Shown piece by piece: positions 4,158-59,207 of a stretch of DNA of 64,000 bases. This DNA comes from an uncultured Acidobacteriota bacterium (GTDB lineage Bacteria > Acidobacteriota > Vicinamibacteria > Vicinamibacterales > SCN-69-37). Below the pieces are notes generated by a model that saw only the letters and a list, made by a program, of their open reading frames with translations, was not told the DNA's origin and made no database searches. How positions within the stretch are numbered: position 1 is the first letter of the stretch; the number at the start of each line of letters is the position of its first letter. The position numbers and the translations under genes are program-made. The stretch spans positions 9,978 through 73,977 of the forward strand of contig CAVVWN010000007.1 in assembly GCA_963752045.1 (NCBI GenBank), in the 5' to 3' direction.

Positions 4158-4233
4158 GGTGAGTGTAGCTCAATGGCAGAGCACCGGACTGTGGCTCCGG
4201 TGGTTGCGGGTTCGATCCCCGTCACTCACCCCA
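4158..4233 (+). tRNA. tRNA-His (anticodon GTG) with genomically encoded G-1 and CCA end
   Basis: Folded by hand. Acceptor stem is GTGAGTG/CACTCAC, with the extra 5' G (4158) pairing with discriminator C4230. D arm is GCTC/GAGC. Anticodon stem is CCGGA/TCCGG with loop CTGTGGC, giving anticodon GTG at 4191-4193. T arm is GCGGG-TTCGATC-CCCGT. CCA lies at 4231-4233. Confidence 0.92.
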
Positions 4234-6278: not shown

Positions 6279-6622
6279 CACGTCGTCCCTCGGGGTTTGA
6301 TCCGGCGCGTGGTGCGGATGCGCTGCGGCAGGAATTCCTCTTCGAGTTGGAGGCCCAGGGCGTCGTTCCTCGGGTCGGCGAGATTGCCCAGTGGCTCCAG
6401 GAGGCCGAGCACAAAGAGAACTGTCGCGTAGATGCCCATGGCAACCCCGGCGTTGCCCTTTTCGAGTTTCACGAGCGTGGTCTGGCTGATGGACGCGCGC
6501 TCGGCGACGATCGCCAGGGGAAGACGCCGCCGCCGCCGCGCATCGCGGATATCGCGACCCAGCTTCCGCAGGGCGTTGCGAACCGGGATGGGGAGGGCGA
6601 TAGCAGCCCGACTTGTCCTCAT
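6278..6622 (-). CDS. hipB: HipB-like XRE-family antitoxin/repressor
   Basis: 114 aa. NALRKLGRDIRDARRRRRLPLAIVAERASISQTTLVKLEKGN is an XRE helix-turn-helix. It lies immediately upstream of and overlaps hipA (TGATG junction). Confidence 0.72.
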   Translation of the reverse strand: MRTSRAAIALPIPVRNALRKLGRDIRDARRRRRLPLAIVAERASISQTTLVKLEKGNAGVAMGIYATVLFVLGLLEPLGNLADPRNDALGLQLEEEFLPQRIRTTRRIKPRGTT

Positions 6623-6700
6623 GTAGCATCCATATTAATTGTCTTTATATGATTTAAAATATATTATTATGTAGTCTAACTAAAGCACAACCAAACCTCG
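6623..6700 (-). promoter_or_regulatory. Extremely AT-rich hipBA upstream region (probable promoter/operator)
   Basis: ATCCATATTAATTGTCTTTATATGATTTAAAATATATTATTATGTAGTCTAACTAAAGC sits in a genome that is otherwise about 70 percent GC. It contains several TATAAT-like hexamers and a TTTAAA-centred partial palindrome (ATATGATTTAAAATATAT). Confidence 0.45.
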
Positions 6701-12034: not shown

Positions 12035-14161
12035 ATGCCCCGTTGGCGCGACGACCCGGCGAAGGTGAGGCCCATGCTGGCATCGCTCGACGACCCGCCG
12101 GTCGTCAAGCGCGGGCTCGTCTACGAACCGAAGTACGACGGCGTGCGGGCGCTTGCGGACCTCCGCCCGCCCGAGAAGCGGGGACAGCCGCCGCACGTGG
12201 CCCTCTACTCGCGTAACGGCCACGACAAGCGGCGCCAGTTCCCGGCTATTGCCGAGGCGCTCGGCACGCTCGTCACGAAGATCGGACGGCCGATCCTCGC
12301 CGATGCGGAGATCGTGGCCGTCGACCCAAAAGGCCGGCCGCTCGGCTTCGGCAAGCTCCAGGGTCGCATTCATCTCACCGCCGAAACCGACATCGCGCGC
12401 GCCGAACGCGACCAGCCGGCGGCCATCGTGATCTTCGACCTGCTGCGCGACGGCGACGAAGACCTGCGCGCCCTGCCACTCGCGGCGCGCCGCCTCCATT
12501 TGCAGAAAGTCGTCAAGCCGAAGGGCGCCCTGGCCCGGTTGATCCGGCTCAGCGAAGTCGAGGCCGACGACGGCCGGCCGATGCTCCGGCGGGCGGAGAA
12601 GGAAGGCTGGGAAGGCCTCATCGTCAAGGACGGCCACAGCGTGTACCAGAGCGGACGCCGCACGCCGGCCTGGCGCAAGCTCAAGCTCACCGGCCAGCAG
12701 GAGCTCGTCGTCGTCGGCTGGACCAATCCCCAGGGCAGCCGGCATCACTTCGGCGCCCTGCTCGTCGCCGTTCACGAAGACGGCGCGCTGCGGTACGCGG
12801 GCAGCGTCGGCACCGGTTTCGACGAGCGCGAGCTGGAACGGGTGGCGAAGCTGCTCGCGAAGCGCGCGCGCACGTCGTCGCCGCTCGCCGACACGCCCAG
12901 GTCGCTCTCGGCCGCGCACTGGGTGGAGCCGTCGCTTGTGGCTGAAGTGCGATTCACCGAGTGGACGAGCGACGGCATGCTGCGTCACCCGGTGTACCTG
13001 GGTCTGCGCGACGACAAGCCCGCGGGGAAGGTCGTGAGGGAGCGGCGAAGGTCCGAAGGTCCGAAGGTCCGGAGGTCCGAAGGTCCGAAGGTCCGGAGGT
13101 CCGAAGGTCCGAAGGTCCGGAGGTCCGGCGGTCCGAAGGTTCGGGGTCCGGGCGGCCGAGAGTCCGGTCACGGGACAGTCACCGGTGACGCCGGTGTCGT
13201 CGAGCAGTTGCTGGCGCTCGAGGACGCGCGCAAGGACGGCGACGTCCTGCTGCCGAATGGCGACCGCCTTCGCGTGACGAATCTCGGCAAGGTGTTCTGG
13301 CCGGCGCTCGGCATCACGAAGGGCGAGCTGCTCCGCTACTACGCGGAGGTGGCGCCGCTCGTCCTGCCGGCCGTCGACGACCGGCCGCTCGTGATGAAGC
13401 GCTTTCCGAACGGCGTGGACAAGAAGGCCTTCTACCAGCAGCGGCATCCAGATCCCGTCCCGGCCGGCGTGAGACGCGAGCGGCTCGCCGAAGACGTCGA
13501 CCCCATCGACGAGGCCGAGGGCGGACGCGAGCGGCTGATTGGCGGCTCGCTCACGACCCTGCTCTACATGACGCAGCTGGCCGCCATCTCGCAGGATCCG
13601 TGGTTCTCCAGGGTGTCCGATCCGCTGGCGCAGGACTACACGGCCATCGATCTCGACCCGGGCGACGGCACCACGTTCGCCCACGTGCTCGACGTCGCGC
13701 GATGGGTGAAAGACGAACTGGACCGGTTCGGCATCCCTGGCGTGCCCAAGACGTCCGGGTCGCGGGGCCTGCACATCTACATTCCGCTTCCGCCGGGCAC
13801 CGGCTACGATGTCGGCCAGTTGCTCGCCCAGATTGTCGCCACGATCGTGTCGAGCGCGCATCCGAAGGTGGCGACGATCGAGCGCATGGTGCGGCGCCGG
13901 CCGAAGGGCACGGTGTATGTGGACTATCTGCAGAACATCCTCGGCAAGACACTCGCCACCGCCTATTCGGCCAGGGCCAGCGACTATGCCGGCGTGTCGA
14001 CGCCACTCACGTGGGACGAAGTGGCCGATGGCATCGACCCGCGGGACTTCACGATACGGTCGGCGCCGCAGCGGTTCCGCGAGGTGGGCGACCTGTGGGC
14101 GCCCCTGCGCTCGGGCGCGCCCGTGAACCTCTCGCGCGTGCTGCGCACGCATCTCCGATGA
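12035..14161 (+). CDS. ligD: ATP-dependent DNA ligase LigD, ligase domain + polymerase/primase domain (no phosphoesterase domain)
   Basis: 708 aa. The N-terminal ligase domain carries the adenylation motif EPKYDGVRA and WEGLIVKD, RTPAWRKLK. The C-terminal LigD polymerase domain carries VTNLGKVFWPALGITKGELLRYYAEVAPLVLPAVDDRPLVMKRFPNGV and SGSRGLHIYIPL. A repeat-encoded linker lies between them. Confidence 0.9.
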   Translation: MPRWRDDPAKVRPMLASLDDPPVVKRGLVYEPKYDGVRALADLRPPEKRGQPPHVALYSRNGHDKRRQFPAIAEALGTLVTKIGRPILADAEIVAVDPKGRPLGFGKLQGRIHLTAETDIARAERDQPAAIVIFDLLRDGDEDLRALPLAARRLHLQKVVKPKGALARLIRLSEVEADDGRPMLRRAEKEGWEGLIVKDGHSVYQSGRRTPAWRKLKLTGQQELVVVGWTNPQGSRHHFGALLVAVHEDGALRYAGSVGTGFDERELERVAKLLAKRARTSSPLADTPRSLSAAHWVEPSLVAEVRFTEWTSDGMLRHPVYLGLRDDKPAGKVVRERRRSEGPKVRRSEGPKVRRSEGPKVRRSGGPKVRGPGGRESGHGTVTGDAGVVEQLLALEDARKDGDVLLPNGDRLRVTNLGKVFWPALGITKGELLRYYAEVAPLVLPAVDDRPLVMKRFPNGVDKKAFYQQRHPDPVPAGVRRERLAEDVDPIDEAEGGRERLIGGSLTTLLYMTQLAAISQDPWFSRVSDPLAQDYTAIDLDPGDGTTFAHVLDVARWVKDELDRFGIPGVPKTSGSRGLHIYIPLPPGTGYDVGQLLAQIVATIVSSAHPKVATIERMVRRRPKGTVYVDYLQNILGKTLATAYSARASDYAGVSTPLTWDEVADGIDPRDFTIRSAPQRFREVGDLWAPLRSGAPVNLSRVLRTHLR
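13047..13150 (+). repeat. In-frame tandem repeat (8-mer GGTCCGAA/GGTCCGGA; 24-nt supra-unit x3 plus degenerate copies) inside the ligD linker
   Basis: GAAGGTCCGAAGGTCCGAAGGTCCGGAGGTCCGAAGGTCCGAAGGTCCGGAGG... encodes (RRSEGPKV)x3-RRSGGPKVRGPGG. It is followed by the 12-nt perfect palindrome GTCACCGGTGAC. Confidence 0.85.
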
Positions 14162-15060
14162 CGGACAGCCACACGCGATTCGCACCGGCACCGACCGGAT
14201 ACCTGCACCTGGGCCACGTGGCCAACGCGATCTTCGTGTGGGGCCTCGCCCGAACGCGCGGCGCGCGCGTCATCCTGCGCGTCGAAGACCACGACCGTCA
14301 GCGTTCGCGCCCGGTCTACGAACACGCCCTCCTGGAGGACCTCGACTGGCTCGGGTTCGTCCCGGACGTCTTCCCCACCGCTGATTTCCGCGCTGGTTCG
14401 TGCGATGGCCGCCAGAGCAATCGGCACGCGCACTACGAAGCCGCCGCACGCCGGCTTGCCGAGGCCGGTCGGCTCTACGGGTGCGGCTGTTCGCGCCAGG
14501 ACCTCGGGGCCGCAACGCCGGATACGACCGGCGAGCGCCGCTATCCAGGTACCTGCAGAGATCGCGGCATCGGTCTCGGGCCCGACGTGGCGTGGCGAGT
14601 CCGGATCGAGCCGGGAACCGAATCGTTCGACGATCTTCTGGCCGGCCCGCAAACCCAGGATCCCGATGGCCAGTGCGGCGACGTCGTCATCCGCGACCGA
14701 CTGGGCAACTGGACCTACCAGTTCGTCGCGAGTGTCGACGACTGGCTGATGGGCGTGGACCTGGTGGTGCGCGGCCGGGATCTGCTGCCATCGACCGGCC
14801 GGCAGATGCGGCTCGCCCGCCTGGCAGGCCGATCTCAGCCGCCGGCCTTCGCGCATCATCCGCTGATCATGAAGTCCTCCGGGCAGAAGCTGAGCAAGTC
14901 GGATCGTGACACCGGCGTCCGCGACCTTCGCTCGAGCGGCTGGACCGCCGCGAGCGTCATCGGCGAAGCCGCCTGGCGCGTGGGCCTCATCCCGGCCGTC
15001 CGGGACGTGGAGGCGGCCGAGGTGTCGGCGTTCTTTCTGGCGGCTTCCAGTTCTCTGTAG
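14158..15060 (+). CDS. gluQ: Glutamyl-Q tRNA(Asp) synthetase (truncated GluRS paralog)
   Basis: 300 aa: RFAPAPTGYLHLGH (HIGH-type), ILRVEDHD, Zn-site-like CGCSRQD...YPGTCR, KLSKS. There is no anticodon-binding domain. The ATG overlaps the ligD stop (ATGA at 14158-14161). Confidence 0.85.
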   Translation: MTDSHTRFAPAPTGYLHLGHVANAIFVWGLARTRGARVILRVEDHDRQRSRPVYEHALLEDLDWLGFVPDVFPTADFRAGSCDGRQSNRHAHYEAAARRLAEAGRLYGCGCSRQDLGAATPDTTGERRYPGTCRDRGIGLGPDVAWRVRIEPGTESFDDLLAGPQTQDPDGQCGDVVIRDRLGNWTYQFVASVDDWLMGVDLVVRGRDLLPSTGRQMRLARLAGRSQPPAFAHHPLIMKSSGQKLSKSDRDTGVRDLRSSGWTAASVIGEAAWRVGLIPAVRDVEAAEVSAFFLAASSSL

Positions 15061-15220: not shown

Positions 15221-16687
15221 CTAGAACTGAAAATAGATGAAACTCAGCGACTCGCGGCTCCGGAAGACCAGGATCAGCGCGAAGAGGACGCCGCAGAAGA
15301 GCGCCTGTGCCGCAATCCACCCGGGAGCGGAGTACGGCGCGCGGCCCGAATCGGCCCTCCGAACAAACGGCAGCGCGTCCCAGGCGGCATGGATCCAGAG
15401 CGGCAGCGAGTAGACCGCCGAGAGGAGCAGCAGGTAGGCGCCGGCCTGGTTGTCGGCGGTCGAGGCCGCCCAGGGCGAGAGCGCAAGGTCGCGCGCGAGC
15501 GCGGCGAACTCACGCTCGCGGAAGATCAGCCAGCCCACGTTGGTGAGGAGGAACATCACGAACATCTGACCCGGCGCGAGCAGCCAGCGCACGGCGGCGG
15601 GTCGAATGTCGAGGCGCGCGAGCGCCCGCGCCACGAGCAGCAGCACGCCGTGATAGAAGCCCCACAGCACGAAGTTCCAGCTGGCGCCGTGCCAGAACCC
15701 CGACACGACGAACGTGATGACGACGTTCCGAGCCCACATCGGCGTGCCGGTGCGGGACCCGCCCAGCGGAATGTAGACGTAGTCACGAAACCACGTGGAG
15801 AGCGAGATGTGCCAGCGGTGCCAGAAGTCGGCCGGGCTCCTGGCCACGTACGGATGGTCGAAGTTCTTCATCACGTCGAAGCCCAGCCACCGGGCCGTGC
15901 CGCGCGCGATGTCGCTGTAGGCTGAAAAGTCGGCGTAGATCTGAATCCCGAACGCGAACACGCCGGCCCAGAGCACCGGAAACGTCGGGTCGGCGAGCGC
16001 GAACACCTTGTTCGCGACAACGCCGACGTTGTCGGCGATCACGAGCTTCTTGAAGAAGCCCCAGAGCATCAGCACGAGGGCGTTGCGGGCAAGATCGGCC
16101 GAGAACACCCGGGGCCGCTCCACCTGAGGCAGCAGGTGCGAGGCCCGCTCGATGGGCCCGGCCACCAGCTGCGGAAAGAACGACACGAACACGGCGACGT
16201 CGAGAAAGCTCCGCCGCGGCTCCAGCCGCCCGCGATAGACGTCGATCGTGTAGCTGAGCGTCTGGAACGTGTAGAACGAGATCCCGACCGGCAGCACGAT
16301 CTGAAGCGCGGGCTTCGGCACGCCGAGCCCCATGGCGTCGAGCACGACGAACACGTTGTCGACGAAGAAGTCGAAGTACTTGAAGAAGCCGAGCAGGCCG
16401 AGATTGGCGAAGAGACTGACGAGCAGCCAGCGACGGCGCCTGTCAGGGCGGGCTTCAGCCCGCCCACCGATCGACGGCGCGGCCGTCGCGCTGGCCATGG
16501 CTCGCGCGGCCCAGTAGTCCACGAACGTGGACGCGAAGATGAGGCTGAGGAACCACGGATGGACCCACCCGTAGAACACGTAGCTGCCGACCAGGAGCAG
16601 CCAGTTCTGCGCGCGGTGGCCGAGGCGCCAGTAGATCGCGACGATGATCGCGAAGAACGCCAGGAAGTCGAGGCTGTGAAACGTCAC
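15221..16687 (-). CDS. MBOAT-family membrane-bound O-acyltransferase (AlgI/DltB-like)
   Basis: 488 aa: MTFHSLDFLAFFAIIVAIYW...YVFYGW, ISFYTFQTLSYTIDVYRG, and FWHRWHISLSTWFRDYVYIPLGG with the conserved His. Confidence 0.87.
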   Translation of the reverse strand: MTFHSLDFLAFFAIIVAIYWRLGHRAQNWLLLVGSYVFYGWVHPWFLSLIFASTFVDYWAARAMASATAAPSIGGRAEARPDRRRRWLLVSLFANLGLLGFFKYFDFFVDNVFVVLDAMGLGVPKPALQIVLPVGISFYTFQTLSYTIDVYRGRLEPRRSFLDVAVFVSFFPQLVAGPIERASHLLPQVERPRVFSADLARNALVLMLWGFFKKLVIADNVGVVANKVFALADPTFPVLWAGVFAFGIQIYADFSAYSDIARGTARWLGFDVMKNFDHPYVARSPADFWHRWHISLSTWFRDYVYIPLGGSRTGTPMWARNVVITFVVSGFWHGASWNFVLWGFYHGVLLLVARALARLDIRPAAVRWLLAPGQMFVMFLLTNVGWLIFREREFAALARDLALSPWAASTADNQAGAYLLLLSAVYSLPLWIHAAWDALPFVRRADSGRAPYSAPGWIAAQALFCGVLFALILVFRSRESLSFIYFQF

Positions 16688-17730
16688 CGCGGCAGGCGTG
16701 AGATGGCGTCGTGGAAGAGGTCCGTATACCGGATGCGCTCGGACCGGTCGATGTGGTCGCCGTCGTTGTAGACGAGGCTCGCCATCTCCGGGATGTCACG
16801 GTCGTCGATGAGCGCGCCGCCACCGGCCTCGATGTACGCCCGGAGGTCGCGAACGTAGCGTGCGAGCGCCGGCGACTCGGGCGGCGGGCGGCCGGCGACC
16901 GGCCGCCGCAGCACGCGCACGAAACACAGCCGCAGCCCGCGCTCGCGCGCGAGGCGCAGCATCGCCGGCAGCACCGACGACTCCACGTTCCCGGCAAAGT
17001 CCGCGTCGCGGTCGGCGGCGGCGCGCAGGTCGGCCTCCTCCATCGGCCGCAACCGTTCGAGCGCGAACGTGTCGTTCACCCGGCGCAGAAGCTCGTCGCG
17101 GCCGCGGCTGCCGACGACCACGCGCGCGATCCACGACGTGAGCGCAGGCTCGGTCCAGCGGCGCGTGTCGTCGACGCGGTAGGCCCGGCTCGCCAGCGCG
17201 TGCGCACGGTGCCACGCGCCCTCGAGCCGCGCGGCCACGAGCGCGTCGAGCTCCGGCTCCTCGTCGAGCGCCATCGGATCGGTGCGGTCCGGCGCAGGCC
17301 CGTCGATGCGGAAGAGCGTGTCGGTGAGGTTCGTGTCGCGGAAGAACACCACGACCCACTGCGGATCGATCCGGCTCGGAACCACCCAGTTCTTCAGCGC
17401 CAGATACCAGAGGGCCGGGCCGGACGCGGCGTAGCGGATGGGCGCCACCGGCACGCCGCTCGTCTCGGCGAGGTGGTGCTCGTCGATCCGGCCCGCCATC
17501 GAATCGCCGATGACGACAAACCCCGGCTGCATCCGCTCGAGCCCGTCGATGACGCCGGAGTCGAAGGGCGCGCGCGCGCGTGGTCCCTCGAGCGACGGCA
17601 GGTAGCTCGGCGCAAGCGACGTCGGCTCGGGCCCCCAGGCCGCGGAGACCGCGCGCCAGCCGAGGGGCACCGCCAGCGTGACGGCCATCACGAGCACGAT
17701 CGGCACGAGCCCGGTACCGTGCGTGCGCAC
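16684..17730 (-). CDS. MBOAT-associated periplasmic protein, SGNH/AlgJ-X-like (putative acyl-transfer partner)
   Basis: 348 aa. N-terminal TM anchor, then FVVIGDSMAGRID (GDS-type block). Its stop overlaps the MBOAT ATG (ATGA at 16684-16687). The start is a GTG at 17730. The family call rests on context and this one motif. Confidence 0.5.
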   Translation of the reverse strand: MRTHGTGLVPIVLVMAVTLAVPLGWRAVSAAWGPEPTSLAPSYLPSLEGPRARAPFDSGVIDGLERMQPGFVVIGDSMAGRIDEHHLAETSGVPVAPIRYAASGPALWYLALKNWVVPSRIDPQWVVVFFRDTNLTDTLFRIDGPAPDRTDPMALDEEPELDALVAARLEGAWHRAHALASRAYRVDDTRRWTEPALTSWIARVVVGSRGRDELLRRVNDTFALERLRPMEEADLRAAADRDADFAGNVESSVLPAMLRLARERGLRLCFVRVLRRPVAGRPPPESPALARYVRDLRAYIEAGGGALIDDRDIPEMASLVYNDGDHIDRSERIRYTDLFHDAISRLPR

Positions 17731-17772: not shown

Positions 17773-18174
17773 TCACGCGCGTTCTGGCACGTAGGCCACG
17801 CAGTCGATTTCGACCCGCAGGCCCTTGCCGGGTAATGCCGCCGCCTGGATGGTGGTTCGCGCCGGCTTGTGGCCCGCGAACAGCCGTTCGTAGACCGCGT
17901 TCATCTTCGGGAACTCCGCCATGTCGACGAGGAAGACGCCGCACCGCAGCACGTGCTGCAGGTCCGAGCCGGCGTCCCTGAGGATGGCCTGAAGATTCCG
18001 GAAACACTGCTCGGTCTGCGACTCGATGTCGGCCCCGGAAAGCTCGCCGGTCGCCGGGTCGGTGGCCCCCTGACCCGACACGAAGACGAGGCGGTCGAAC
18101 ACGGCGGCCGGTGAATACGGGCCGGCCGGCTTCGGCAGATGCGGCGCTGGCTGCACGAGACGATGCGTGGACAT
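17773..18174 (-). CDS. ridA: RidA/YjgF family reactive-intermediate deaminase
   Basis: Start MSTHRLVQPAPHLPKPAGPYSPAAVFDRLVFVSGQG...CFRNLQAILRDAGSDLQHVLRCGVFLVDMAEFPKMNAVY...ARTTIQAAALPKGLRVEIDCVA-type C-terminus. The ATG at 18174 was chosen over the ORF-track 18216. Confidence 0.85.
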   Translation of the reverse strand: MSTHRLVQPAPHLPKPAGPYSPAAVFDRLVFVSGQGATDPATGELSGADIESQTEQCFRNLQAILRDAGSDLQHVLRCGVFLVDMAEFPKMNAVYERLFAGHKPARTTIQAAALPGKGLRVEIDCVAYVPERA

Positions 18175-18316
18175 GCGGCAAATCTTAGCCCAGCCGCGGC
18201 GGGATCGGCGGCGCACATTTCCCCTGTCCGCAAGGGCGGCGCGGTGCTACTTTCTAGAAGTCGTTGGCCGCCATCCGGAAGGCGGCCCGGGACAGGCGCA
18301 GGAGGTGTTCACGGTC

Positions 18317-21300
18317 ATGCCGCGCGCCGCGTTTGCCGCTGCCGACGACGACGTGCTGGCCGGCGGCACGCTTGTCGTCGATGCCGGCGTTGAACACCTC
18401 CGGCTGCGCGAGCTCGATGCCTCGGGCCGTGTCGTCGACGACGCCCTCGTTGCCAACCACGGCGACCTGAAGAAGATTTTCAGCGCGCGAGGGCTGGACC
18501 ACCGCTTCGGCAACGGGCACGGCGGACGCGTGGTGGTCACCGGCAAGCTGGCCGACACTGTTGCTGGCGCCATCGGCCGGGGCCGCACGATTCTGCCGGC
18601 GGCCGCACTCTGGCTGGCCGCCCGCCGCGTCATCGCGCGACCCGAGAACGCCGGTGTCGAGACGCTCGCGCTCGTCGACCTCTCCGCTTCGGGATACCTG
18701 CTCGTCGGCATCAACCGCTCGGGACTCCTCGCGCACGATCTACTCGTCGTCAATCCCCGGTGCGGCGCCGGGTCGGGCATCAATCTCGATCGCGTGCTGC
18801 AGAAACTGGCGGTCGGGCGCGACGAGGTGGACGGTCTGCTCGCCCCGTATCTCGGAGACGCCGGGCGCGCGAAGCGCGCGAGCATCGGCACGCGCGCCGA
18901 CCGCTGCGGCGTGTTCGCATCGTCGGCCACCGTGTCCGACAAGAACCAGGGCATTCCCCTCGACGTGGCCCTGGCCACCACGCTCAAGTCCGAAGTGCTC
19001 AAGACCTGCCGAAAGCTGCCGCCGGGTTTCGAGATGGTCTGTTTCTCGGGCCGTATCTTCCGGTGGCAGTTCGCGCGCGATTCGGCCGAAGACTTCGTGC
19101 GCGACCTCGGTGTGGCACGCGTGGTCTACGACACCGAGAACACGCATGTTCTCGATGCGCTTGCCGATCTCGCCCCGGACGCCGAGACGCCCGACGCGGT
19201 GCCCGAACCGGCGGCCCCGCCCCCACTGACCACGAGCGCGAGACTCTATCCGTCGTTTCGAGACCTCAGAAGCCGGCACGAGGCGGATGGCCTCTACACG
19301 CGGATGCCGTCCGAGCCGATTCCGGCGCCCGATCCCGACGTCCTCGCCGGCCGGCCCGTGATCGTAGGCCTCGACGTAGGATCGACGATGGCCAAGGTGG
19401 CGATTGCCGACGCCAGTGATGGCCGCCTCCTCGCGATGTCGGCGTACAGCAACGCCGGCGACACGGTCGAGACGGTCAAGTGCGCCCTGCGCGATCTGCA
19501 GGCGCGCGGCATCGACACCTTGACCGTCGCTGGCATCGGCATCACCGGGTCGGCCCGCTACCAGGTGCAGCAGGCGCTCATGCGCATCTATCCGGAGGCG
19601 GCCGACCGGGTGAGCGTGCTCGTCGAGAACTACGCGCACGCCCGCGGGTCGATCGATCTCGCGCGGGCCCACGTCGCCGACCTTGCCGCGCGCGGCGTCG
19701 ACGTGAACCGCGACCTGGCGATCCTCGTGGACATCGGAGGCGAAGACACGAAGATCTCGACGATCGCGCTCTCGCGGGCGGAACTGTTCGCCAATGCCAT
19801 GAACCTCAAGTGCTCGGCGGGCACGGGCAGCCTGATGGACACGCTGGCCTCGCTTTTCGGCATCGCGGGCGTGGCCGAGGCGTGCGCCGAGGCGTATCTG
19901 GCGCCACGCTCGCGCGCGATCAACGCCACCTGCGCCGTGTTCCTCATGGAGAACGCGCGCAAGCTCCAGGCCGAGGGCGTGCCCCGCAACGAGATCCTCG
20001 CGTCGGCCAACTGGGCGATTGTCGAGAACATGGCGCGCACGCTCTGGCACCAGATCGACCTGCCGGCACGCGCCGTCGTGCTGCTCCACGGCCAGACGAT
20101 GCTGTCCGATCCGCTGCCGCTTGCGGTGACCGATCGGCTGCAGTCGTTTCTCGGCGCGCCCGCCTGGGCGCTCGTGCCGCCGTATCCGGGTCACCGCGCC
20201 TGCGTCGGCCTCGTCCGCACGATGATGCAGGCCGCGCCGGCCGGCGCCACCGCGATCAGACTCGCCGATTTCGTGGACGCAACGTTCGAGAAGCGCATCA
20301 TCGAGTGTCGCGGGGCCGTGTGCGGCGATGCCGACGCGCGCTGCAACCGTACGTCGCTCGCCTGTCTGGGCAAGGACGGCGGCCGGTTCACGTTCACGCT
20401 GGGCGGCTGCACCGCGATCAACGAGCTGTTCGGCCGCCGGGGCCAGCCGCGCGACGCGCCGCCGCGCGACGCCTACAAGGAGATCTGGGACGCGATTGCC
20501 GCGCGGCAACCGAAGTCCGACGCGCCAAACCGGCTGGTGCTCGCGCGCAGCTTCTGCGTGTCGGAGTGGGCGTACCTGTTTGCGCGCACGTTCGAGCGGT
20601 TCGGCATTCCCGTGCACGTCGACGAGGTGCGCGAGGCCGACCTCATGAGCGCGCAGGGCCTCTTCAACATCGACACCTGCGCGCCGCACATGGGCGCCGT
20701 CGGGCAGTACCGACGCCTTGCGGCCGAACCGCACGGCGTCATTCTCGTGCCGCAGATTGTCGACCTGCCAACCGGCGGCCGCAGCCGCGGGCATACGTGC
20801 ACGCTCAACCAGGGCGGCGTGGCCGTGGCCCAGAACCTGGCGTCGATGGCCTCGCCCGAGGCGCGTTTTCATCCATTCGGCGTGCGCCTGTCCGACCTCG
20901 ATGCCGACGCCATCTGCGATCAGCTCGAGCCGGGCTTTCGCGGCGTGTTCGCGCGCTACGGCCTTGCGCCTTCGGCCGCCGACCTCTGCGCCGCGCTCGC
21001 CGGGGCCATCGACGATCACCTGGCCCTGCGCCGTGAGGCCGCCGACCTTGCGGCCGACCTGGCCGAAGCCGCACTCGCCGAGGGCCGGCAGATCGCGGTC
21101 GTCGTCGGCCGGGAGTACGTGCTCAACCCCGGCCTGTACGACAGCTCCGTGCGGCGCCTGCTGCGCGACAAGCGGATGACGGCCATTCCGTCCTACGTGC
21201 TCGACGTCGACCTCGATCCGGAGTTCAGCAACATCTACTGGCGCAACCCGCACGCCATCGTCACGATCCTGAACGCGATCGCCAACAAGGCGCTCCACGA

Positions 21301-23077
21301 GCGCCTGCGCCACCCTCGATTGGCCGCGGTCTTCCGCAGCATCGAGGCTCGCGACCCGCCCGGACCGCTCCTGCCCGTCGTGCAGGTCTCGACCTTCTCG
21401 TGCGGACCCGACAGCGTGACGACGCATCTGGTGGCCGACATCATGCGGCGGCGGCCCTTCCTGCTGCTGCAGTCGGACGCGATCCTCAAGGAGCTGGCGC
21501 ACCTCGAGAATCGCGTGAACACGTACGTGAAACAGCTCGAGCTTGGTCTGCATGGCGAGCTGCGGCTCGATGACGGCACGCCGTTCGAGGTCAAGCGCCT
21601 GCACGAGCTGCAGCATGGCGACCCGATCGACCGCGAGCGTGACGTCCTCTACTTCCCGACGCTTGGCGACAACCGGCCGGTGACCTCGGTTCTGCGAGGC
21701 GCGGGCTTCACGTGCATCGACAACTGGACCGAGGCGTACGACCTCGGCGCGGTCATTCGCGAGGGGCGGCGCTTTGCAGGCGATGCGGTGTGCGCGCCGC
21801 TGGCCGCCGTGTACGGCGACCTCGTCGGCGCCGTCGAGGATTTTGCCGAGCGCCATCGGCGCGGCGACCCGCTCGTCCGCAACAAGCGGCGCGTGCTGTA
21901 TTTCGACAACCAGGGCGACGGCCCGTGCCGTCAAGGCCAGTACGCCGAGGTGCACGCCATGCTCGCGCGTGGCGCGCTGGAAACCAGCGGACGTTCCGGG
22001 CCGGACGGCCGGGGCGACTTCGCGCTGCGCCTGCTCGTCGGCGCCGAGGAGCGCGACTTCGACATCGGGATCGAGGAGTGGACGATGTACCGCGCGTATC
22101 AGGCGGTGGTCGTCCACGCGGTGCTGCAGGATCTGCTCTTCCAGGGCGGGTCGCGCTGCCGCGACCGCGCGGATTACGGAGAGTTCATCGCCGACCATCG
22201 CCGGCTGAAGCGCGAGGTGCATGCGGCCCTCGAGTCGTTCCACGGACCCGGTCCGAACGCGCGGCGCCTGATCCGGGCCGCCGGAGAACGGACGGCCGCA
22301 GGCGCCGCCATCAAGTACTTCGCCTACCGTCTCGACGGGCGGGATCTCAGGCCGCTGTTGCGGCGGTTTGCGCGGCGATGGGTCCACGGCCGAACGCTTG
22401 CGCCCGGCCACCTTCGCATTCACGTGTCGGGCGAGGTCTACATGCGAATCGCCCAGGCCGAACAGGTCTTCGAGGCGCTCCTGTCGATCGTCGGGTTCAA
22501 GAGGTTCCACATGTCGCTCTCACCGATCTGGGCGTACCTCGAGTACCTGCCTGAGTACCGGGTCGAGGAGGCGAAGGAGGCGATCGGCGTGTGGGAAGCC
22601 AGACGCCGGCGCGCCGCCGCACCGGAGGACGTGCGGGCATCCGACGAGGGCATTCGCGCCGAACGACAGCGCATCAGGGACGCCGAGCGGCTCGGCGCCG
22701 TGCTCCGCACGCGCGTGGCGCGACCACTCTACCGGGCGGCCGGCCTGCCGCTGCCCGACCCGCCGCGCCACCTGCTGGACACGGCCAGGGACATCCTGCC
22801 GACGCTCCGCCCGGCCGGCGAGCTGGGGCTGTACGTGGGCGAGGCGCTGCTCGAACTGCGGGCCGGCGCGGACATCTTTCTCAGCATCGCGCCGACCGGT
22901 TGCATGGTGACGTCGATGGGCGAAGTCATGACACCCAAGCTCCAGCAGGCCGGCGCGGGACGGATCCAGAGCCTGTTCTCGGCCGACGGCGACGTCGACC
23001 GCGAACTGCTCGGCGTCTCGCTCCTGCGTGCCCTGGGCCCGGAACGGTTCGTCGAGGCGCAGAGCGCCGCCTCATAG
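18317..23077 (+). CDS. Giant acyl-CoA dehydratase activase-related protein: two BcrAD/BadFG-type ATPase modules fused to a large dehydratase-like / DUF2229-like region
   Basis: 1,586 aa from the ATG at 18317 (AGGAGG 12 nt upstream; the ORF-track start at 18167 overlaps ridA). Module 2 is canonical: VIVGLDVGSTMAKV, VDIGGEDTKIS, KCSAGTGSLMD, TCAVFLMENA. Module 1 keeps RCGAGSGINLD and RCGVFASSA but has VVDAGVEHL and VDLSASGYL instead of the ATP motifs. A Cys-rich junction follows: CRGAVCGDADARCNRTSLAC. Confidence 0.7.
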   Translation: MPRAAFAAADDDVLAGGTLVVDAGVEHLRLRELDASGRVVDDALVANHGDLKKIFSARGLDHRFGNGHGGRVVVTGKLADTVAGAIGRGRTILPAAALWLAARRVIARPENAGVETLALVDLSASGYLLVGINRSGLLAHDLLVVNPRCGAGSGINLDRVLQKLAVGRDEVDGLLAPYLGDAGRAKRASIGTRADRCGVFASSATVSDKNQGIPLDVALATTLKSEVLKTCRKLPPGFEMVCFSGRIFRWQFARDSAEDFVRDLGVARVVYDTENTHVLDALADLAPDAETPDAVPEPAAPPPLTTSARLYPSFRDLRSRHEADGLYTRMPSEPIPAPDPDVLAGRPVIVGLDVGSTMAKVAIADASDGRLLAMSAYSNAGDTVETVKCALRDLQARGIDTLTVAGIGITGSARYQVQQALMRIYPEAADRVSVLVENYAHARGSIDLARAHVADLAARGVDVNRDLAILVDIGGEDTKISTIALSRAELFANAMNLKCSAGTGSLMDTLASLFGIAGVAEACAEAYLAPRSRAINATCAVFLMENARKLQAEGVPRNEILASANWAIVENMARTLWHQIDLPARAVVLLHGQTMLSDPLPLAVTDRLQSFLGAPAWALVPPYPGHRACVGLVRTMMQAAPAGATAIRLADFVDATFEKRIIECRGAVCGDADARCNRTSLACLGKDGGRFTFTLGGCTAINELFGRRGQPRDAPPRDAYKEIWDAIAARQPKSDAPNRLVLARSFCVSEWAYLFARTFERFGIPVHVDEVREADLMSAQGLFNIDTCAPHMGAVGQYRRLAAEPHGVILVPQIVDLPTGGRSRGHTCTLNQGGVAVAQNLASMASPEARFHPFGVRLSDLDADAICDQLEPGFRGVFARYGLAPSAADLCAALAGAIDDHLALRREAADLAADLAEAALAEGRQIAVVVGREYVLNPGLYDSSVRRLLRDKRMTAIPSYVLDVDLDPEFSNIYWRNPHAIVTILNAIANKALHERLRHPRLAAVFRSIEARDPPGPLLPVVQVSTFSCGPDSVTTHLVADIMRRRPFLLLQSDAILKELAHLENRVNTYVKQLELGLHGELRLDDGTPFEVKRLHELQHGDPIDRERDVLYFPTLGDNRPVTSVLRGAGFTCIDNWTEAYDLGAVIREGRRFAGDAVCAPLAAVYGDLVGAVEDFAERHRRGDPLVRNKRRVLYFDNQGDGPCRQGQYAEVHAMLARGALETSGRSGPDGRGDFALRLLVGAEERDFDIGIEEWTMYRAYQAVVVHAVLQDLLFQGGSRCRDRADYGEFIADHRRLKREVHAALESFHGPGPNARRLIRAAGERTAAGAAIKYFAYRLDGRDLRPLLRRFARRWVHGRTLAPGHLRIHVSGEVYMRIAQAEQVFEALLSIVGFKRFHMSLSPIWAYLEYLPEYRVEEAKEAIGVWEARRRRAAAPEDVRASDEGIRAERQRIRDAERLGAVLRTRVARPLYRAAGLPLPDPPRHLLDTARDILPTLRPAGELGLYVGEALLELRAGADIFLSIAPTGCMVTSMGEVMTPKLQQAGAGRIQSLFSADGDVDRELLGVSLLRALGPERFVEAQSAAS

Positions 23078-23142: not shown

Positions 23143-24015
23143 ATGCCGCTCACCCCGCTACCGCCGACCGACACTCGCGCGCTCTTTCGCCCTGTTTCCT
23201 CCGAGCTCGTCACGCTCTTGCGCAGCCTCGAACCCGACGACTGGCAGAAGCCGACCATTGCCGGCACCTGGGTCGTGCGAGACATCGTCGCGCACCTGGT
23301 GGATCTGACGTTCCGGCGCCTGTCGTTCCATCGCGACGGGATGACGCCGCCTCCCCCACCGAAGCCGATCACATCCGAGCGGGACTTCGTCGAGTTCATC
23401 AACTGGCTGAATGCCGAGTGGGTGGGCACGACGCGGCGTTTCAGCCCGCGCGTGCTCACCGACCTCGTGGAGCTGGCCAGCCGTGACATCGCCACATGGT
23501 TCGAGGCGCTCCCCCTCGACGCGCCGGCGCTGTTCGGCGTGTCGTGGGCCGGCGAAATGGAGTCTGAGGGCTGGTTCGACGTCGGGCGCGAGTTCACCGA
23601 GCTCTGGCATCACCAGCAGCAGATCCGGCTGGCCGTGGGCGCACCGCCGCTTGCCGATCCCCGATACCTGCGCGCCGTGCTCGCGATCGCGATGCGCGGC
23701 CTTCCACACGCGTTCCGGAACCAGCAGGCCGAGCCGGGCCAGACGGTAGTCGTCGACGTCGGCGGCGCTGCGGGCGGCACCTGGACGCTTCGCCGGGAAG
23801 CCGATCGCTGGACGCTCCACGCAGGCGAGCCGCCCACGGCGACCGCACGCGCGCGCCTGTCGGATGAGGCGGCGTGGAAGCTGCTTCACAACGCACTGGA
23901 CCGTGAGGAGGCAGGCCGGGAGGTCCGGATCGAGGGACTGGCCTCGCTTGCCGAGCCCATCTTCGGCGCGCGGGCGGTCGTCGTGGAGACCGGTCAAAGA
24001 CCGGGCACCGTGTAA
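23143..24015 (+). CDS. DinB-like / maleylpyruvate isomerase (mycothiol-dependent) N-terminal domain family protein
   Basis: 290 aa: FRPVSSELVTLLRSLEPDDWQKPTIAGTWVVRDIVAHLVD (DinB-type metal-binding His region) and EFTELWHHQQQI. Confidence 0.6.
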   Translation: MPLTPLPPTDTRALFRPVSSELVTLLRSLEPDDWQKPTIAGTWVVRDIVAHLVDLTFRRLSFHRDGMTPPPPPKPITSERDFVEFINWLNAEWVGTTRRFSPRVLTDLVELASRDIATWFEALPLDAPALFGVSWAGEMESEGWFDVGREFTELWHHQQQIRLAVGAPPLADPRYLRAVLAIAMRGLPHAFRNQQAEPGQTVVVDVGGAAGGTWTLRREADRWTLHAGEPPTATARARLSDEAAWKLLHNALDREEAGREVRIEGLASLAEPIFGARAVVVETGQRPGTV

Positions 24016-30180: not shown

Positions 30181-32814
30181 TCAACGCCGGTCGAGCGTTT
30201 GCAGCCAGTTGGTGACGAAGTCGAGCGAGCGCGCACCCGGCTCTTCGCGCACGAACAAGAAGTGCTTCCCGTCCGGGCTCAGGCTGTAATGCGGGATCGA
30301 GAGGTTTGGGCCGAACCGGTACTGCTGGTCGAAGAGCAGTCGCGGCGGCGATAGATTGGGGTCGGGGCCGAGCGCGACGTCGACGGCCATCAGGCGCTGG
30401 CCGTCGCGATAGTAGATGTGGCGGCCGTCCGGACTCCACAGCGGATGCAGGCCGCCGCCCGCCGACACCGAGTACCGTCGATCGGCCTGCGGATACGGCG
30501 AGAGATAGACCTGGGCCTCCCCGCCTTCATCAGACGTGTACACCATCCATCGCCCGTCCGGCGAAAACTGGCCCCCGCCTTCGTAGGCCGGCGTCTCGAA
30601 CAGCGACCGCGGGGCCTCGGTGTTGTCAAGGGGGACGACGTAGATGTCGCCGCTCGTCACGGGCGAGATTCTGATGAACGCCAGCGTACGGCCGTCGGGA
30701 GATACCGATGCCGGAAAGTCACTGGAACCCGTTGCGGCCAAGGCCTGCTCCCCGCCGGTGCCATCCGCCTTGATCATCGCGAGTGTCGTCGTGGATCTGA
30801 AGACGATGTGGTCCGGGCCTGCCCACTGGGCGTAGCCGGCACCGGAGGGTGCCAGTTTCGTCAAGGCGCCGCGCGCGAGGTCGAGCGTCCACAGGCCGTC
30901 ACCGCCGGAAAACACGAGGCGCCGCCCGTCGGGCGAGACGCGCGGGTTGGAGTACTCGCGCGAAGGTCCGATCACTGGCGTCTCCGTGCCGTCGCTGGTC
31001 ACCCAGACCAGCCGACCCAGTGACACGGCACTGCCGGCCGCGATCAGATCACCACTGGCCGACACGCTTGCGGCAAACCCGAGATTGGCCGCGAACGTCA
31101 CATCCTCTCGAACCCGGATCGGCGTCTCGGTGACCTGGCCGTCGCGGAGGCGCGCGGCGTAGAGCGCGCCGTCGCGGGCGAGCACCAGGCGGTCGGGAAA
31201 CGCCGCGATGGCCTGATACGCCTCCGGCAACGCCACGAACTGCCGCCCGGTCGAGAGGTCGACGCCGTGGAGCGCGTCGTGACCGTCCGTGGAGGTGCTG
31301 GTATAGAAGACGAAGGCCGAGTCGGTCGACGCGACCGGCAGCCTGTGCGCGATCTCACCGCGGGCCACGTCGAGCGTGGTCAGCGCCCGCGCATCCCCGC
31401 CGGCGGCCGGTATCGCCCAGAGACTGCCCTCGCGACCAAAGACGATCTGGTCATCTGCGCTCCAGGCCAGTCCTGCAACGAAGTCGGCGCGGGTGGCGAG
31501 CCGTTGAGAGGCGGTGCCGTCGACCGACAGCTTCATGAGGTCGCCCGTATTCGACACCTGGGCCACCTGGGCGCCGTCTGGCGACACGGCCAGCGCGCTG
31601 GTCGACGCACTGCCGGGGACCTCTCTCATCTCCCGATCATCGAGCCGCCGAGTGAAGATCTGGCGTACGCCGGCGCGGACGGCGAAGAAGGCCGCGACGG
31701 ATCCATCAGCCGAGAGCCGCGGCACGCCAAAGAACTCGATGTCCGAGGGCATGTTGAGCGACGCGGCGACCAGCCGCGCGTCGCCGTCGCCGCCTCGATC
31801 CCCGAGCGCCACCGCGAACGCCACGAGGAGCAGTCCGGCCACCGACCAGGAGAGCAGCGGCGATGCGAACCAGCGGCGCGATGACGACCCGGAGGAAGCC
31901 CCCGCGTCTTCCGGCGCCGCCTCGTCGTGTCCGGCAATGACCTCGTCGAGCAGAATGCGCGCTTCGCCGATGTCGCGCAGCCGCTGCCGCGGATCCTTCG
32001 TCAGGCATCGCGAGAGAAGCCGACGTATCGACCTGGGCGTCGCGGGCGGCAGTTGCGCAAGGTCCGGCTCGCGCTCGATCACCTTCGCGAGGACATCCGT
32101 GATGTCGTCGCCGGGGAACGCACGCGTGCCCGTGATCATCTCGTAGAGCACGACGCCGAACGCCCAGACGTCGGCCCGCCGGTCTACGGCCTTGCCGCGC
32201 GCCTGCTCGGGCGGCATGTAGGCGGCCGTGCCCATGATCATCCCGAGCTCGGTGGCGCGCGCCGTGAGGGTCGGGGAATTGGCGACGTGTTGGGCGGACT
32301 GCAGTTCAGTCCGCCCTGCGACTTCAGCCTTGCCCAATCCGAAGTCGAGCAGCTTGGCCTGCCCGTCGGGAGTGACCCGGATGTTGGCCGGCTTGAGGTC
32401 ACGATGGATGATGCCGCGCTCGTGCGCCGCCTCGAGCGCGTCGGCGATCTGCCGGCCGATGGCCCACGCCTCGGCAAACGGCAGCGCGGCGGGTGAAGCG
32501 CCGGCCGGGCGCAGCATCTCTTCGAGCGTCCGGCCCTCGACGAGCTCCATCACGATGACCGGGCCGGCGCCAGACTGCTCGAGGCCGTAGATGGACGCGA
32601 TGTGCGGGTGATTGAGCGACGCGAGCAGCTGCGCTTCGCGCTCGAATCGCGCCAGCCGGTCCGGATCCGACGCCACGATCTCCGGCAGGGACTTGATGGC
32701 GACGTCCCGCCGAAGCCGATCGTCGTGCGCCCGATAGACCTGCCCCATGCCCCCCTCGCCGATGAGAGCGGTCAGCTCGTAGGGGCCGATGCGTGTGCCG
32801 GGCGCGAGACTCAT
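30181..32814 (-). CDS. Ser/Thr protein kinase with TM segment and C-terminal TolB-like beta-propeller
   Basis: 877 aa: GPYELTALIGEGGMGQVYRAHD...VAIK, HRDLKPANI, DFGLGK, AYMPPEQ. Then a TM segment (LLSWSVAGLLLVAFAVAL) and repeated SPDG/propeller blades. Confidence 0.88.
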   Translation of the reverse strand: MSLAPGTRIGPYELTALIGEGGMGQVYRAHDDRLRRDVAIKSLPEIVASDPDRLARFEREAQLLASLNHPHIASIYGLEQSGAGPVIVMELVEGRTLEEMLRPAGASPAALPFAEAWAIGRQIADALEAAHERGIIHRDLKPANIRVTPDGQAKLLDFGLGKAEVAGRTELQSAQHVANSPTLTARATELGMIMGTAAYMPPEQARGKAVDRRADVWAFGVVLYEMITGTRAFPGDDITDVLAKVIEREPDLAQLPPATPRSIRRLLSRCLTKDPRQRLRDIGEARILLDEVIAGHDEAAPEDAGASSGSSSRRWFASPLLSWSVAGLLLVAFAVALGDRGGDGDARLVAASLNMPSDIEFFGVPRLSADGSVAAFFAVRAGVRQIFTRRLDDREMREVPGSASTSALAVSPDGAQVAQVSNTGDLMKLSVDGTASQRLATRADFVAGLAWSADDQIVFGREGSLWAIPAAGGDARALTTLDVARGEIAHRLPVASTDSAFVFYTSTSTDGHDALHGVDLSTGRQFVALPEAYQAIAAFPDRLVLARDGALYAARLRDGQVTETPIRVREDVTFAANLGFAASVSASGDLIAAGSAVSLGRLVWVTSDGTETPVIGPSREYSNPRVSPDGRRLVFSGGDGLWTLDLARGALTKLAPSGAGYAQWAGPDHIVFRSTTTLAMIKADGTGGEQALAATGSSDFPASVSPDGRTLAFIRISPVTSGDIYVVPLDNTEAPRSLFETPAYEGGGQFSPDGRWMVYTSDEGGEAQVYLSPYPQADRRYSVSAGGGLHPLWSPDGRHIYYRDGQRLMAVDVALGPDPNLSPPRLLFDQQYRFGPNLSIPHYSLSPDGKHFLFVREEPGARSLDFVTNWLQTLDRR

Positions 32815-32857
32815 GAAGTGGCGAAAGAATACACCAGCCGCTCAGCGGGCCAGCGTC

Positions 32858-32988
32858 AGGGGGACGGGTCTGTTTTCCACAGATTTGCGCAGTTGGGGGC
32901 CAGGTCTCCGTGGGTCTCCGTGGGGCATCTGACCCACGGAGACCTGGCCCCGAACGCGCAAATCTGTGGAAAACAGACCCGTCCCCCT
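32858..32988. repeat. 131-nt near-perfect palindrome (about 58-bp arms) in the divergent region between the two kinase genes
   Basis: AGGGGGACGGGTCTGTTTTCCACAGATTTGCGCAGTTGGGGGCCAGGTCTCCGTGGGTC-loop-GACCCACGGAGACCTGGCCCCGAACGCGCAAATCTGTGGAAAACAGACCCGTCCCCCT. One arm mismatch was seen. It shares the GGGGGACGGGTCT and AGATTTGC modules with the palindrome at 15068-15151. Confidence 0.8.
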
Positions 32989-33022
32989 CTTTCGCGGTAC
33001 CATGCCGGCCTCGGAGGCATGC

Positions 33023-35662
<2,640 letters not shown>

Positions 35663-45693: not shown

Positions 45694-45732
45694 CGACTCC
45701 TCTCCGAGGGCGCGCCGACCGGCGGCCCGGGC

Positions 45733-46878: not shown

Positions 46879-46911
46879 GCGCGTGAGCCAGATGGTTCGA
46901 AGACATGCCCG

Positions 46912-50767: not shown

Positions 50768-50916
50768 GCTGCCCTCCCGAAGGTGAAGGTGACGAGCTTC
50801 AGATCCTACTCGCCGCTTTGATTCGACGCCATGCTTTCGATGCAGCGACGCCGCGATTCCGACAGAATAGTGAGAGGTTGTCCGATTCGCCATCACCCCG
50901 CCCTCGAGCCCCACGC

Positions 50917-58159: not shown

Positions 58160-58177
58160 TCGAACCGGTTCTGCGCC

Positions 58178-58435: not shown

Positions 58436-58438
58436 CCC

Positions 58439-59206: not shown

Positions 59207-59207
59207 T

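Follow-up and report, generated by a model that had tools for sequence, protein, structure and literature searches.

The 64,000-nucleotide window analyzed here (contig CAVVWN010000007.1, assembly GCA_963752045.1, from an uncultured Acidobacteriota bacterium) contains a gene, at positions 18317 to 23077 of the plus strand, whose 1,586-residue product joins two activase-type modules, only the second of which has its ATP loops, to a C-terminal half that resembles the benzoyl-CoA reductase (BCR), 2-hydroxyacyl-CoA dehydratase (HAD) and double-cubane-cluster protein (DCCP) superfamily. On balance we favor the explanation that it is a single-chain, ATP-dependent, low-potential reductase or dehydratase with the layout of PlsA plus PlsR, or of Ger, for which a glycerolipid ester is the likeliest substrate. 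The two parts of this proposal differ in strength. The enzyme class and the model with a single ATP site are highly probable, while the conversion of a membrane glycerolipid acyl ester to a vinyl or alkyl ether is a tentative assignment by analogy with characterized enzymes.

Domain layout of the fused protein

The open reading frame (ORF) call and its translation give 1,586 residues with the stop codon counted in the end coordinate, and an AGGAGG lies 11 nucleotides 5' of the start ATG at 18317. Among 5.8 billion proteins searched there are more than 120 clusters of full-length homologues (~1,540-1,670 residues, 54-82% identity), and when 30 diverse members of this clade are aligned, the mean column identity is 64% and 17 cysteines are invariant. 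Given these full-length clusters and invariant cysteines, a chance origin of the ORF is excluded and the gene is confirmed as a real, conserved one. Its parts follow the order Act1, Act2, four-Cys junction, Red1 (DUF2229) and Red2, as laid out below (all on the plus strand).

18317..23077, +, whole gene: fused activase/reductase of the BCR/HAD/DCCP superfamily with PlsA/Ger-like architecture (ORF, homologues, HHalign)
18365..19171, +, Act1 (residues 17-285): activase-type ASKHA (sugar-kinase/actin-fold) module without ATP loops (HHalign, AlphaFold2, motifs)
19172..19351, +, variable linker (residues 286-345): predicted local distance difference test (pLDDT) score <50 at residues 287-306; 1/60 positions invariant
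19352..20236, +, Act2 (residues 346-640): intact HgdC/BcrAD-type ATPase (PF01869, HgdC/HadI sequence matches, 115/295 positions invariant)
20285..20416, +, four-Cys junction (residues 657-700): C664-x4-C669-x6-C676 ... GGC698; small beta domain, presumed Fe-S or Zn site
20447..21466, +, Red1 (residues ~711-1050): DUF2229 and an HGD-D-like patch; conserved C788, C828 and C1029
21467..21616, +, conserved segment (residues 1051-1100, QSDA..KELAHLENRVNTYVKQLELGLH): 19/50 positions invariant; pLDDT <50 in the half-protein model
21617..23074, +, Red2 (residues ~1101-1586): PlsR-equivalent half, collinear with the C-terminal part of the ~1,400-residue relatives

The Pfam scan of the target returns one BcrAD_BadFG domain (PF01869, residues 350-631, 49 bits against a cutoff of 31.5) and DUF2229 (PF09989, residues 742-958, 41.8 bits) and nothing besides, leaving the first module unmatched. 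Among the profiles by which the initial annotation had proposed to delimit the domains, BcrAD_BadFG (in the second module only) and DUF2229 are thus found and HGD-D is not. In a sequence search of the PDB only residues ~390-590 match, to HgdC (1hux), HadI (4eht) and the DCCP reductase DCCP-R (7yyl), with MbdQ (9gai) added when the family profile is used; the profile search of the PDB leaves the C-terminal 900 residues without any match, and no sequence-level match lies outside Act2.

The two halves were folded separately with AlphaFold2, residues 1-720 from a 59-sequence alignment (pLDDT 84, predicted template-modeling score, pTM, 0.84) and residues 640-1586 (pLDDT 80, pTM 0.80). Residues 190-214 (window positions 18884-18958) contain many invariant residues and yet have pLDDT <50, as do residues 1051-1100. 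The low scores of these two segments possibly reflect the absence of the partner half from each model, and the segments may contact one another or become ordered upon cluster binding; residues 1051-1100 are a possible inter-domain docking element.

The first activase module lacks the ATP loops and retains the cluster cysteines

The first module carries VDAGVEHL (residues 21-28), VDLSASGY (120-127), RCGAGSGI (148-155) and RCGVFASS (196-203), and the second GLDVGSTMAK (351-360), VDIGGEDTK (471-479), KCSAGTGS (498-505) and TCAVFLME (538-545); every motif string listed in the initial annotation is present at its expected place. When both modules of 12 clade representatives and 51 relatives of ~1,400 residues are aligned with MAFFT, these motifs fall into register.

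Phosphate-1 (P1): Act1 VVDAGVEHLRL; Act2 GLDVGSTMAKV
Phosphate-2 (P2): Act1 ALVDLSASGYLL; Act2 ILVDIGGEDTKI
Cluster Cys 1: Act1 VNPRCGAGSGIN; Act2 MNLKCSAGTGSL
Cluster Cys 2: Act1 ADRCGVFA; Act2 NATCAVFL
Adenosine site: Act1 FSGR; Act2 LHGQ

The canonical phosphate-1 (DxGST..K) and phosphate-2 (DxGGxD) loops occur only in the second module, where the nucleotide motifs are DVGSTMAK (P1), DIGGEDTK (P2) and HGQT at the adenosine site, so that Act2 has the nucleotide motifs of the BcrAD_BadFG/HgdC-type activases and Act1 does not. The cysteine pairs C149/C197 of Act1 and C499/C539 of Act2 are invariant in 30/30 clade members and 51/51 relatives, and their sequence positions identify them as likely equivalents of the HgdC pair that bridges one [4Fe-4S] cluster, which is therefore a predicted cluster here.

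The clade profile of Act1 aligns with the ATP-competent Act1 of the relatives over 224 columns (HHalign probability 96.3%, E 1.8e-9), in a register that pairs IDAGV with IDiGSvsvK and LSA--SGY with IGGeDaK. Against the Act2 of its own clade the signal is weak (E 0.083), which is why Pfam misses Act1. In the AlphaFold2 model the order of strands and helices is identical in Act1 and Act2, the first strand ending at D22/D353 and the fourth at D121/D472 (Act1/Act2). Foldseek places HadI, MbdQ/MbdP, HgdC and DCCP-R at the top of the PDB matches to residues 1-720 (E ~1e-13, target TM 0.75-0.84), with the two-lobed hexokinases ranking after the activases, although the output leaves unstated whether Act1 or Act2 is the matched module. 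Act1 is thus a true activase-type module, paralogous to Act2 and orthologous to the ATP-competent Act1 of the relatives, in which GS[T] and GG[EQ]D of the nucleotide loops are missing. The replacement motifs [ILV]DAG[VIT] and [DE]xSASGY are near-invariant throughout the clade and 62/269 positions of Act1 are invariant (63/250 in Red1, 115/295 in Act2), which supports the view that Act1 is a conserved, repurposed module under purifying selection rather than a product of decay or drift. The claim with which the analysis began, that each chain holds two activase modules of which only the second has ATP loops and both have cluster cysteines, is borne out by the motifs, MAFFT and HHalign, and the module alignment suggested as its check finds the motif loss in register and the cysteines kept; the structural interpretation of the ATPase pair is well supported by the sequence, profile and AlphaFold evidence together.

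The four-Cys junction and the C-terminal half

The cysteines of the junction are spaced C664-x4-C669-x6-C676-x6-C683, and the C-x4-C-x7-C-x6-C of the initial annotation was a miscount. C664, C669, C676 and C698 are invariant (30/30) and C683 is found in only 26/30 members, while the 51 relatives have an equivalent Cx2-4Cx3-6C...GGxC motif at the junction position. Since C683 is not invariant, and C698 both is invariant and has a counterpart motif in the relatives, the conserved four-Cys site suggested by the sequences is C664/C669/C676/C698, with C698 within GGC; the junction set is therefore C664-x4-C669-x6-C676...C698. The model has beta strands at residues 657-695.

C788, C828 and C1029 of Red1 are invariant in the clade and in 51/51 relatives, and Red2 has three cysteines in common with the relatives (C1159, C1204 and C1529) and two specific to the clade (C1133 and C1281), as well as a long helical hairpin in the model at residues 1406-1474. 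Foldseek gives six confident PDB matches only to residues 640-1586, all at E 1e-3 to 5e-2 and TM ~0.4, as follows.

DCCP: 7yzm_A, 7yyl_A/B
(R)-2-hydroxyisocaproyl-CoA dehydratase (HadC): 3o3m_B/D
BzdO: 8s02_B

These matches are weak and specific, and the models support a DCCP/HAD/BCR fold class for the ~900 C-terminal residues. The sub-threshold HGD-D patches of the relatives map to target residues 979-1071 and 1516-1564, around C1029 and C1529. The dehydratase-like C-terminus of the initial annotation accordingly holds as regards DUF2229 and the fold class (DCCP, HadC, BzdO), and not as regards an HGD-D domain or a PDB sequence match.

Relationship to PlsA/PlsR, Ger and other enzymes of the superfamily

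An exhaustive phmmer scan with residues 330-1529 against 1.84 billion cluster representatives returned about a dozen full-length clade representatives (40-56% identity, 860-1,400 bits), and its matches to proteins of ~1,400 residues cover only the second module, DUF2229 and part of the remainder. Profile comparison extends this similarity from end to end: HHalign aligns positions 17-1608 of the clade with 2-1425 of the 1,430 positions of the ~1,400-residue relatives (probability 100%, E 7e-91; 1,381 columns, 21% identity). Thirteen cysteines are common to the clade and the sampled relatives, with C149, C197, C499, C539, C664, C698, C788, C828, C1029, C1159, C1204 and C1529 in 51/51 and C669 in 46/51. 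Read as a pattern, these would comprise four at the Act interface, three to four at the junction and three each in Red1 and Red2, an arrangement that looks like the three-Cys clusters of the HAD enzymes. C629, C676, C1133 and C1281 are scored as clade-specific, although C676 has a counterpart in the junction motif of the relatives.

In the ~1,400-residue relatives, Pfam detects two stretches of BcrAD_BadFG along with DUF2229, and HGD-D patches below threshold. In the module alignment and a neighbor-joining tree, one set (group A) has an intact Act1 (DxGSxxxK, EIGG[EQ]DxK), its best profile matches being Thermodesulfobacteriota and Syntrophaceae, some of which have a Pfam HGD-D match. Several relative clades, one of them from Myxococcota, have a degenerate Act1 (e.g. 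RLGARGYS, SLGGETF), and the studied clade forms a third, long-branched group with invariant replacement motifs of its own. Degeneration of Act1 is thus recurrent in the superfamily and not unique to the target protein, and the sequences place the target clade as what appears to be a distinct, deep-branching and uncharacterized branch of a known enzyme superfamily. Searches from the relatives returned clades of Myxococcota and Thermodesulfobacteriota and no named reference protein, NCBIfam contains no PlsA/Ger model, and the cluster names of the relatives are generic only.

Enzymes with this architecture have been characterized. [quoted passage not shown] In Clostridium perfringens, PlsA (CPE1195, 1,004 residues) and PlsR (CPE1194, 420 residues) produce plasmalogens by reduction of the sn-1 acyl ester (PMC9702350, PMC12838417); PlsA and PlsR are fused in facultative anaerobes, being a single chain in E. 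faecalis (EF1327) and Listeria. Ger is a fused "modified PlsA", from T. maritima (Tmari_0479/AGL49404) and D. alkenivorans (SHJ90043), with the Pfam architectures BBDHDDH and BBDHDHDH, and in E. coli it gives 1-O-alkyl glycerol ethers upon anaerobic expression only (PMC13159169). According to a 2026 paper, the number of activation domains (B) that can be detected in PlsA-like homologues is one or two, and there is a tendency for those with one B to come from plasmalogen producers and those with BB from alkyl-ether producers, although PlsA and Ger are not yet separable from sequence (PMC13274423). For the superfamily, then, the initial annotation has been overtaken in calling the substrate of such giant fusions unknown, and for the target clade it still holds.

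In the architecture comparison, 1,381 columns of the target clade are collinear with the ~1,400-residue BBD(H) proteins, while Pfam itself sees only B-D. PlsA/PlsR have Act1, Act2 and DUF2229 followed by a second reductase half, an order that the target probably shares. Like the target, they have a BCR/HAD ancestry and conserved cysteines for [4Fe-4S] clusters, form a self-sufficient unit of one or two genes, and have a long C-terminal helical element in their models; the one B that Pfam detects in the target is also that of the plasmalogen-associated type. They differ in that the similarity to the target appears to be remote only, the target is ~160 residues longer than their 1,424-residue sum, has no HGD-D Pfam signal and no conserved upstream TetR regulator, and the hosts are Bacillota and Actinomycetota in place of mostly Pseudomonadota and Acidobacteriota. 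Ger resembles the target as a single chain with plsA and plsR parts, a stand-alone gene and a BBD core, but has two Pfam-detectable activation domains, whereas the target has a degenerate Act1 and falls in a separate clade; it is the group A relatives, with their intact Act1, that fit the two-activation-domain description of Ger.

The remaining members of the superfamily resemble the target in parts. HgdC and HadI share with it the Act2 sequence match and two cysteines per module at equivalent positions, and HadC a weak C-terminal fold match, but these activases are homodimers with two equal ATP sites, apart from their dehydratase, in contrast to one chain with, as the motifs suggest, one live site; the HgdAB/HadBC dehydratases recycle the electron and act on 2-hydroxyacyl-CoA esters. 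The DCCP/DCCP-R system of Carboxydothermus hydrogenoformans (7yyl, 7yzm) performs a comparable ATP-dependent Fe-S reduction, with DCCP the best fold match of the C-terminal half (E 1e-3, TM ~0.4) and DCCP-R among the N-terminal matches, but these are separate proteins with an [8Fe-9S] cluster on six cysteines, where the target pattern looks like 3 + 3 as in HAD. The class I benzoyl-CoA reductases (BcrABCD, BzdNOPQ, MbdONPQ; 9gai, 8s02) offer a natural hetero-pair of activase-type subunits that share one cluster, as well as fold matches to MbdQ/MbdP and BzdO; unlike the target they consist of four separate subunits and use an aromatic CoA ester. Both of their ATPase subunits are nucleotide-competent.

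A hypothetical mechanism

Based on HgdC/HadI, BCR and DCCP-R, we put forward a hypothetical mechanism in which Act1 and Act2 form an intramolecular pseudo-dimer that would hold one [4Fe-4S] cluster on C149/C197/C499/C539, and in which this cluster would be reduced by ferredoxin or flavodoxin. We propose that ATP binding and hydrolysis at the sole competent site, in Act2, would cause a conformational switch that drives the electron, possibly via the four-Cys junction, to the three-Cys clusters of Red1 and Red2, where the substrate carbonyl could bind to an open iron and be converted to a ketyl radical. With one live ATP site the cost would be ~1 ATP per electron and not 2.

Distribution and gene neighborhood

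In a survey of one genome per species, 230 of 185,579 species encode a relative of the target. The best species-level match is an Acidobacteriota metagenome-assembled genome (MAG, 65% identity), followed in rank by many Beta- and Gammaproteobacteria (Thiobacillaceae, Rhodocyclaceae, Azovibrio restrictus DSM 23866, Sulfuritalea, Sedimenticolaceae and tubeworm endosymbionts, and Methylococcaceae). Formivibrio citricus is a carrier too, and further carriers are found in Desulfobulbaceae, Campylobacterota, Spirochaetota, Nitrospirota, Planctomycetota, Bacteroidota, the Candidate Phyla Radiation (CPR) and a few archaeal MAGs. The clade is thus mainly proteobacterial rather than acidobacterial. Full-length homologues (44-48% identity; loci L031, L058, L060, L067, L075 and L081) are present both in CPR bacteria (Parcubacteria, Falkowbacteria, Buchananbacteria) and in archaeal MAGs, one a Methanosarcinales bin, which suggests lateral transfer of a self-sufficient gene.

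Synteny was examined in three contigs and 80 genome loci by all-against-all BLAST of the flanking ORFs and a Pfam census of the nearest neighbors. Across the 80 loci there is no conserved partner gene, the 136 flanking ORFs falling into 128 different Pfam families, and flanking genes lie on both strands equally often. That the gene stands alone at these loci, in many phyla and with no strand bias, is as expected of a self-sufficient enzyme whose substrate is a component of every cell. The presence of small-genome CPR bacteria and symbionts among the carriers is counted for a glycerolipid substrate, which we propose on the grounds of the architecture, the stand-alone context and the occurrence in small-genome organisms.

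Alternative explanations

Several observations weigh against the proposed enzyme class, its single ATP site or its lipid substrate. The NCBIfam model TIGR00241 ("acyl-CoA dehydratase activase") scores 81 bits, under its cutoff of 125, the C-terminal half has only weak fold matches (TM ~0.4, E >=1e-3), and Pfam HGD-D (PF06050) has no match at E <= 1 in any of the 30 members. In the phmmer scan a sharp gap separates the clade from the ~1,400-residue proteins, which reach only 24-31% identity and <=142 bits (best E 1e-36). With these relatives as a proxy, the target clade probably lies below the published cutoffs for Ger/PlsA homologues, which require either coverage >= 30% at E <= 1e-50 or identity > 30% at E <= 1e-30. 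No lipid gene accompanies the homologue consistently at the 80 loci, and to our knowledge ether lipids are unreported for the cultured carriers Azovibrio restrictus and Formivibrio citricus. Finally, the P1 and P2 strands of Act1 end in invariant Asp residues, D22 and D121, through which the module could still bind metal or nucleotide.

The last point is the basis for a view of Act1 as a live module that binds a nucleotide or other ligand in a non-canonical manner, in a regulatory or non-hydrolytic role, such that two bound nucleotides would still be needed; some heterodimeric ABC transporters, with their degenerate site, would offer a model by analogy. Not only D22 and D121 but also G24 and G126 are invariant, and DAG[VI] and SASGY are conserved as strongly as the catalytic motifs of Act2. 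However, P1 has V/I and a variable residue in place of its Ser/Thr pair, P2 has Ser-Ala in place of Gly-Gly in a model hairpin two residues shorter, and the GG of the adenosine site is GR in the target, while in related clades the Asp residues are gone altogether (CLGA, RLGARGY), and we regard a live Act1 as improbable. More weight, although less than for the preferred explanation, belongs to a protein of the same enzyme class with a non-lipid substrate, for example a small unsaturated molecule (cf. DCCP) or an acyl or aryl thioester (cf. HAD/BCR), whose resemblance to PlsA/Ger would be architectural only. The long branch and the score gap to the ~1,400-residue relatives, the four clade-specific invariant cysteines (C629, C676, C1133, C1281) and DCCP as the top C-terminal fold match speak for it, and since PlsA and Ger are inseparable by sequence (PMC13274423), transfer of function at 21-30% identity is weak. 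Against this, no CoA ligase, CoA transferase or fermentation gene occupies a conserved position, and the target shares end-to-end collinearity and 13 cysteines with the PlsA/Ger-type group. It should also be noted that the characterized CoA-ester enzymes of the superfamily are, so far as is known, all multi-subunit and operon-encoded, whereas the characterized single-chain fusions are lipid enzymes. A decaying or mis-assembled fusion without a function of its own, for which the sole point is that Pfam misses the first module and HGD-D, is already refuted by the conservation data and can be set aside: ~230 species from many phyla retain the full length at 43-82% identity, the 17 cysteines are invariant and the fold is predicted with confidence.

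Significance of the clade

Enzymes of this superfamily spend ATP to reach redox potentials beyond those of ordinary cellular donors. A single live ATP site would fix the energy cost at one ATP per electron, which matters for enzymes that consume electrons stoichiometrically. A bolder reading, which we would not expect to hold but consider worth stating, is that the clade represents a new function among the ATP-driven Fe-S radical enzymes, that of a stand-alone reductase using one ATP per electron. It would either be the enzyme, so far missing, that reduces lipid esters to ethers in Acidobacteriota and in microaerophilic or facultative Pseudomonadota, or act on a different carbonyl substrate altogether. 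The former would be relevant to the debate over which organisms make the branched tetraether (branched glycerol dialkyl glycerol tetraether, brGDGT) climate-proxy lipids, since the Acidobacteria that produce ether lipids gave no Ger homologue in published screens. This clade of ~230 species in many phyla is annotated merely as "activase-related", and surveys of ether-lipid capacity may overlook it, its similarity being probably under their thresholds. If its members do make ether lipids, that capacity would extend to Betaproteobacteria, Gammaproteobacteria and Acidobacteriota, with a bearing on the sources of ether-lipid biomarkers.

Neighboring genes and other content of the window

The genes around the target are listed here.

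15221-16687, -, DltB/MBOAT-like membrane O-acyltransferase (TIGR04091, 153 bits, under cutoff), ~1.6 kb upstream of the target
16684-17730, -, 348-residue ORF without a family match, upstream of the DltB/MBOAT-like gene with a 4-nucleotide overlap
17773-18216, -, RidA, divergent upstream neighbor
23143-24015, +, DinB/MDMPI-like metal-binding protein (TIGR03083, 54 bits), beginning 66 nucleotides past the target stop

RidA upstream and a DinB-like gene downstream are as the initial annotation had them, and its remark that the neighbors give no pathway clue holds here and likewise at the 80 related loci. No terminator-like site was detected between the target and the DinB/MDMPI-like gene, and co-transcription of the two is possible. 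The DltB/MBOAT-like gene and the 348-residue ORF likely form a two-gene acylation unit. None of the RidA, DltB/MBOAT-like and DinB/MDMPI-like neighbors recurs beside homologues elsewhere. Apparent clusters of ABC-transporter and sensor-kinase genes near homologues were rejected as generic families at varying distances. At four loci (L041, L043, L044, L045), from the closely related genomes of Sedimenticolaceae and tubeworm endosymbionts only, SufBD Fe-S assembly genes adjoin the homologue on its downstream side. In two Sedimenticolaceae MAGs a fusion of MFS, acyltransferase and AMP-binding domains (~1,160 residues, LplT-Aas-like, as in lysophospholipid recycling) lies ~1 kb upstream of the homologue (L007:1296-4760, minus strand; L012:1334-4822, minus strand), and this, the only lipid-related neighbor seen, counts in favor of the preferred explanation.

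Elsewhere in the window the following features were identified.

4159-4233, tRNA-His
5010-6629, -, HipA-like kinase
6773-9199, +, ADOP family duplicated permease (TIGR03434, 759 bits, above cutoff)
12035-14161, +, LigD (ligase and primase-polymerase)
~14160-15060, +, GluQRS-like tRNA-synt_1c protein
30181-32814, -, Ser/Thr kinase with PD40 repeats
35037-35126, tRNA-Ser
49070-50956, -, gamma-glutamyltranspeptidase

Five long ORFs (515-848 residues) have no Pfam match at E <= 1e-5, at 599-2434 (+), 2436-4034 (+), 32399-34945 (-), 45446-47305 (-) and 57913-59460 (+). The sequence itself makes an acidobacterial origin of the window probable: it encodes the ADOP permease, of a family that Acidobacteria have expanded strongly, and PD40-type Ser/Thr kinases, and the species-level relative nearest to the target is an Acidobacteriota MAG. 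The related Acidobacteriota MAG locus L002 likewise has an ADOP-type permease, close to a PadR gene.

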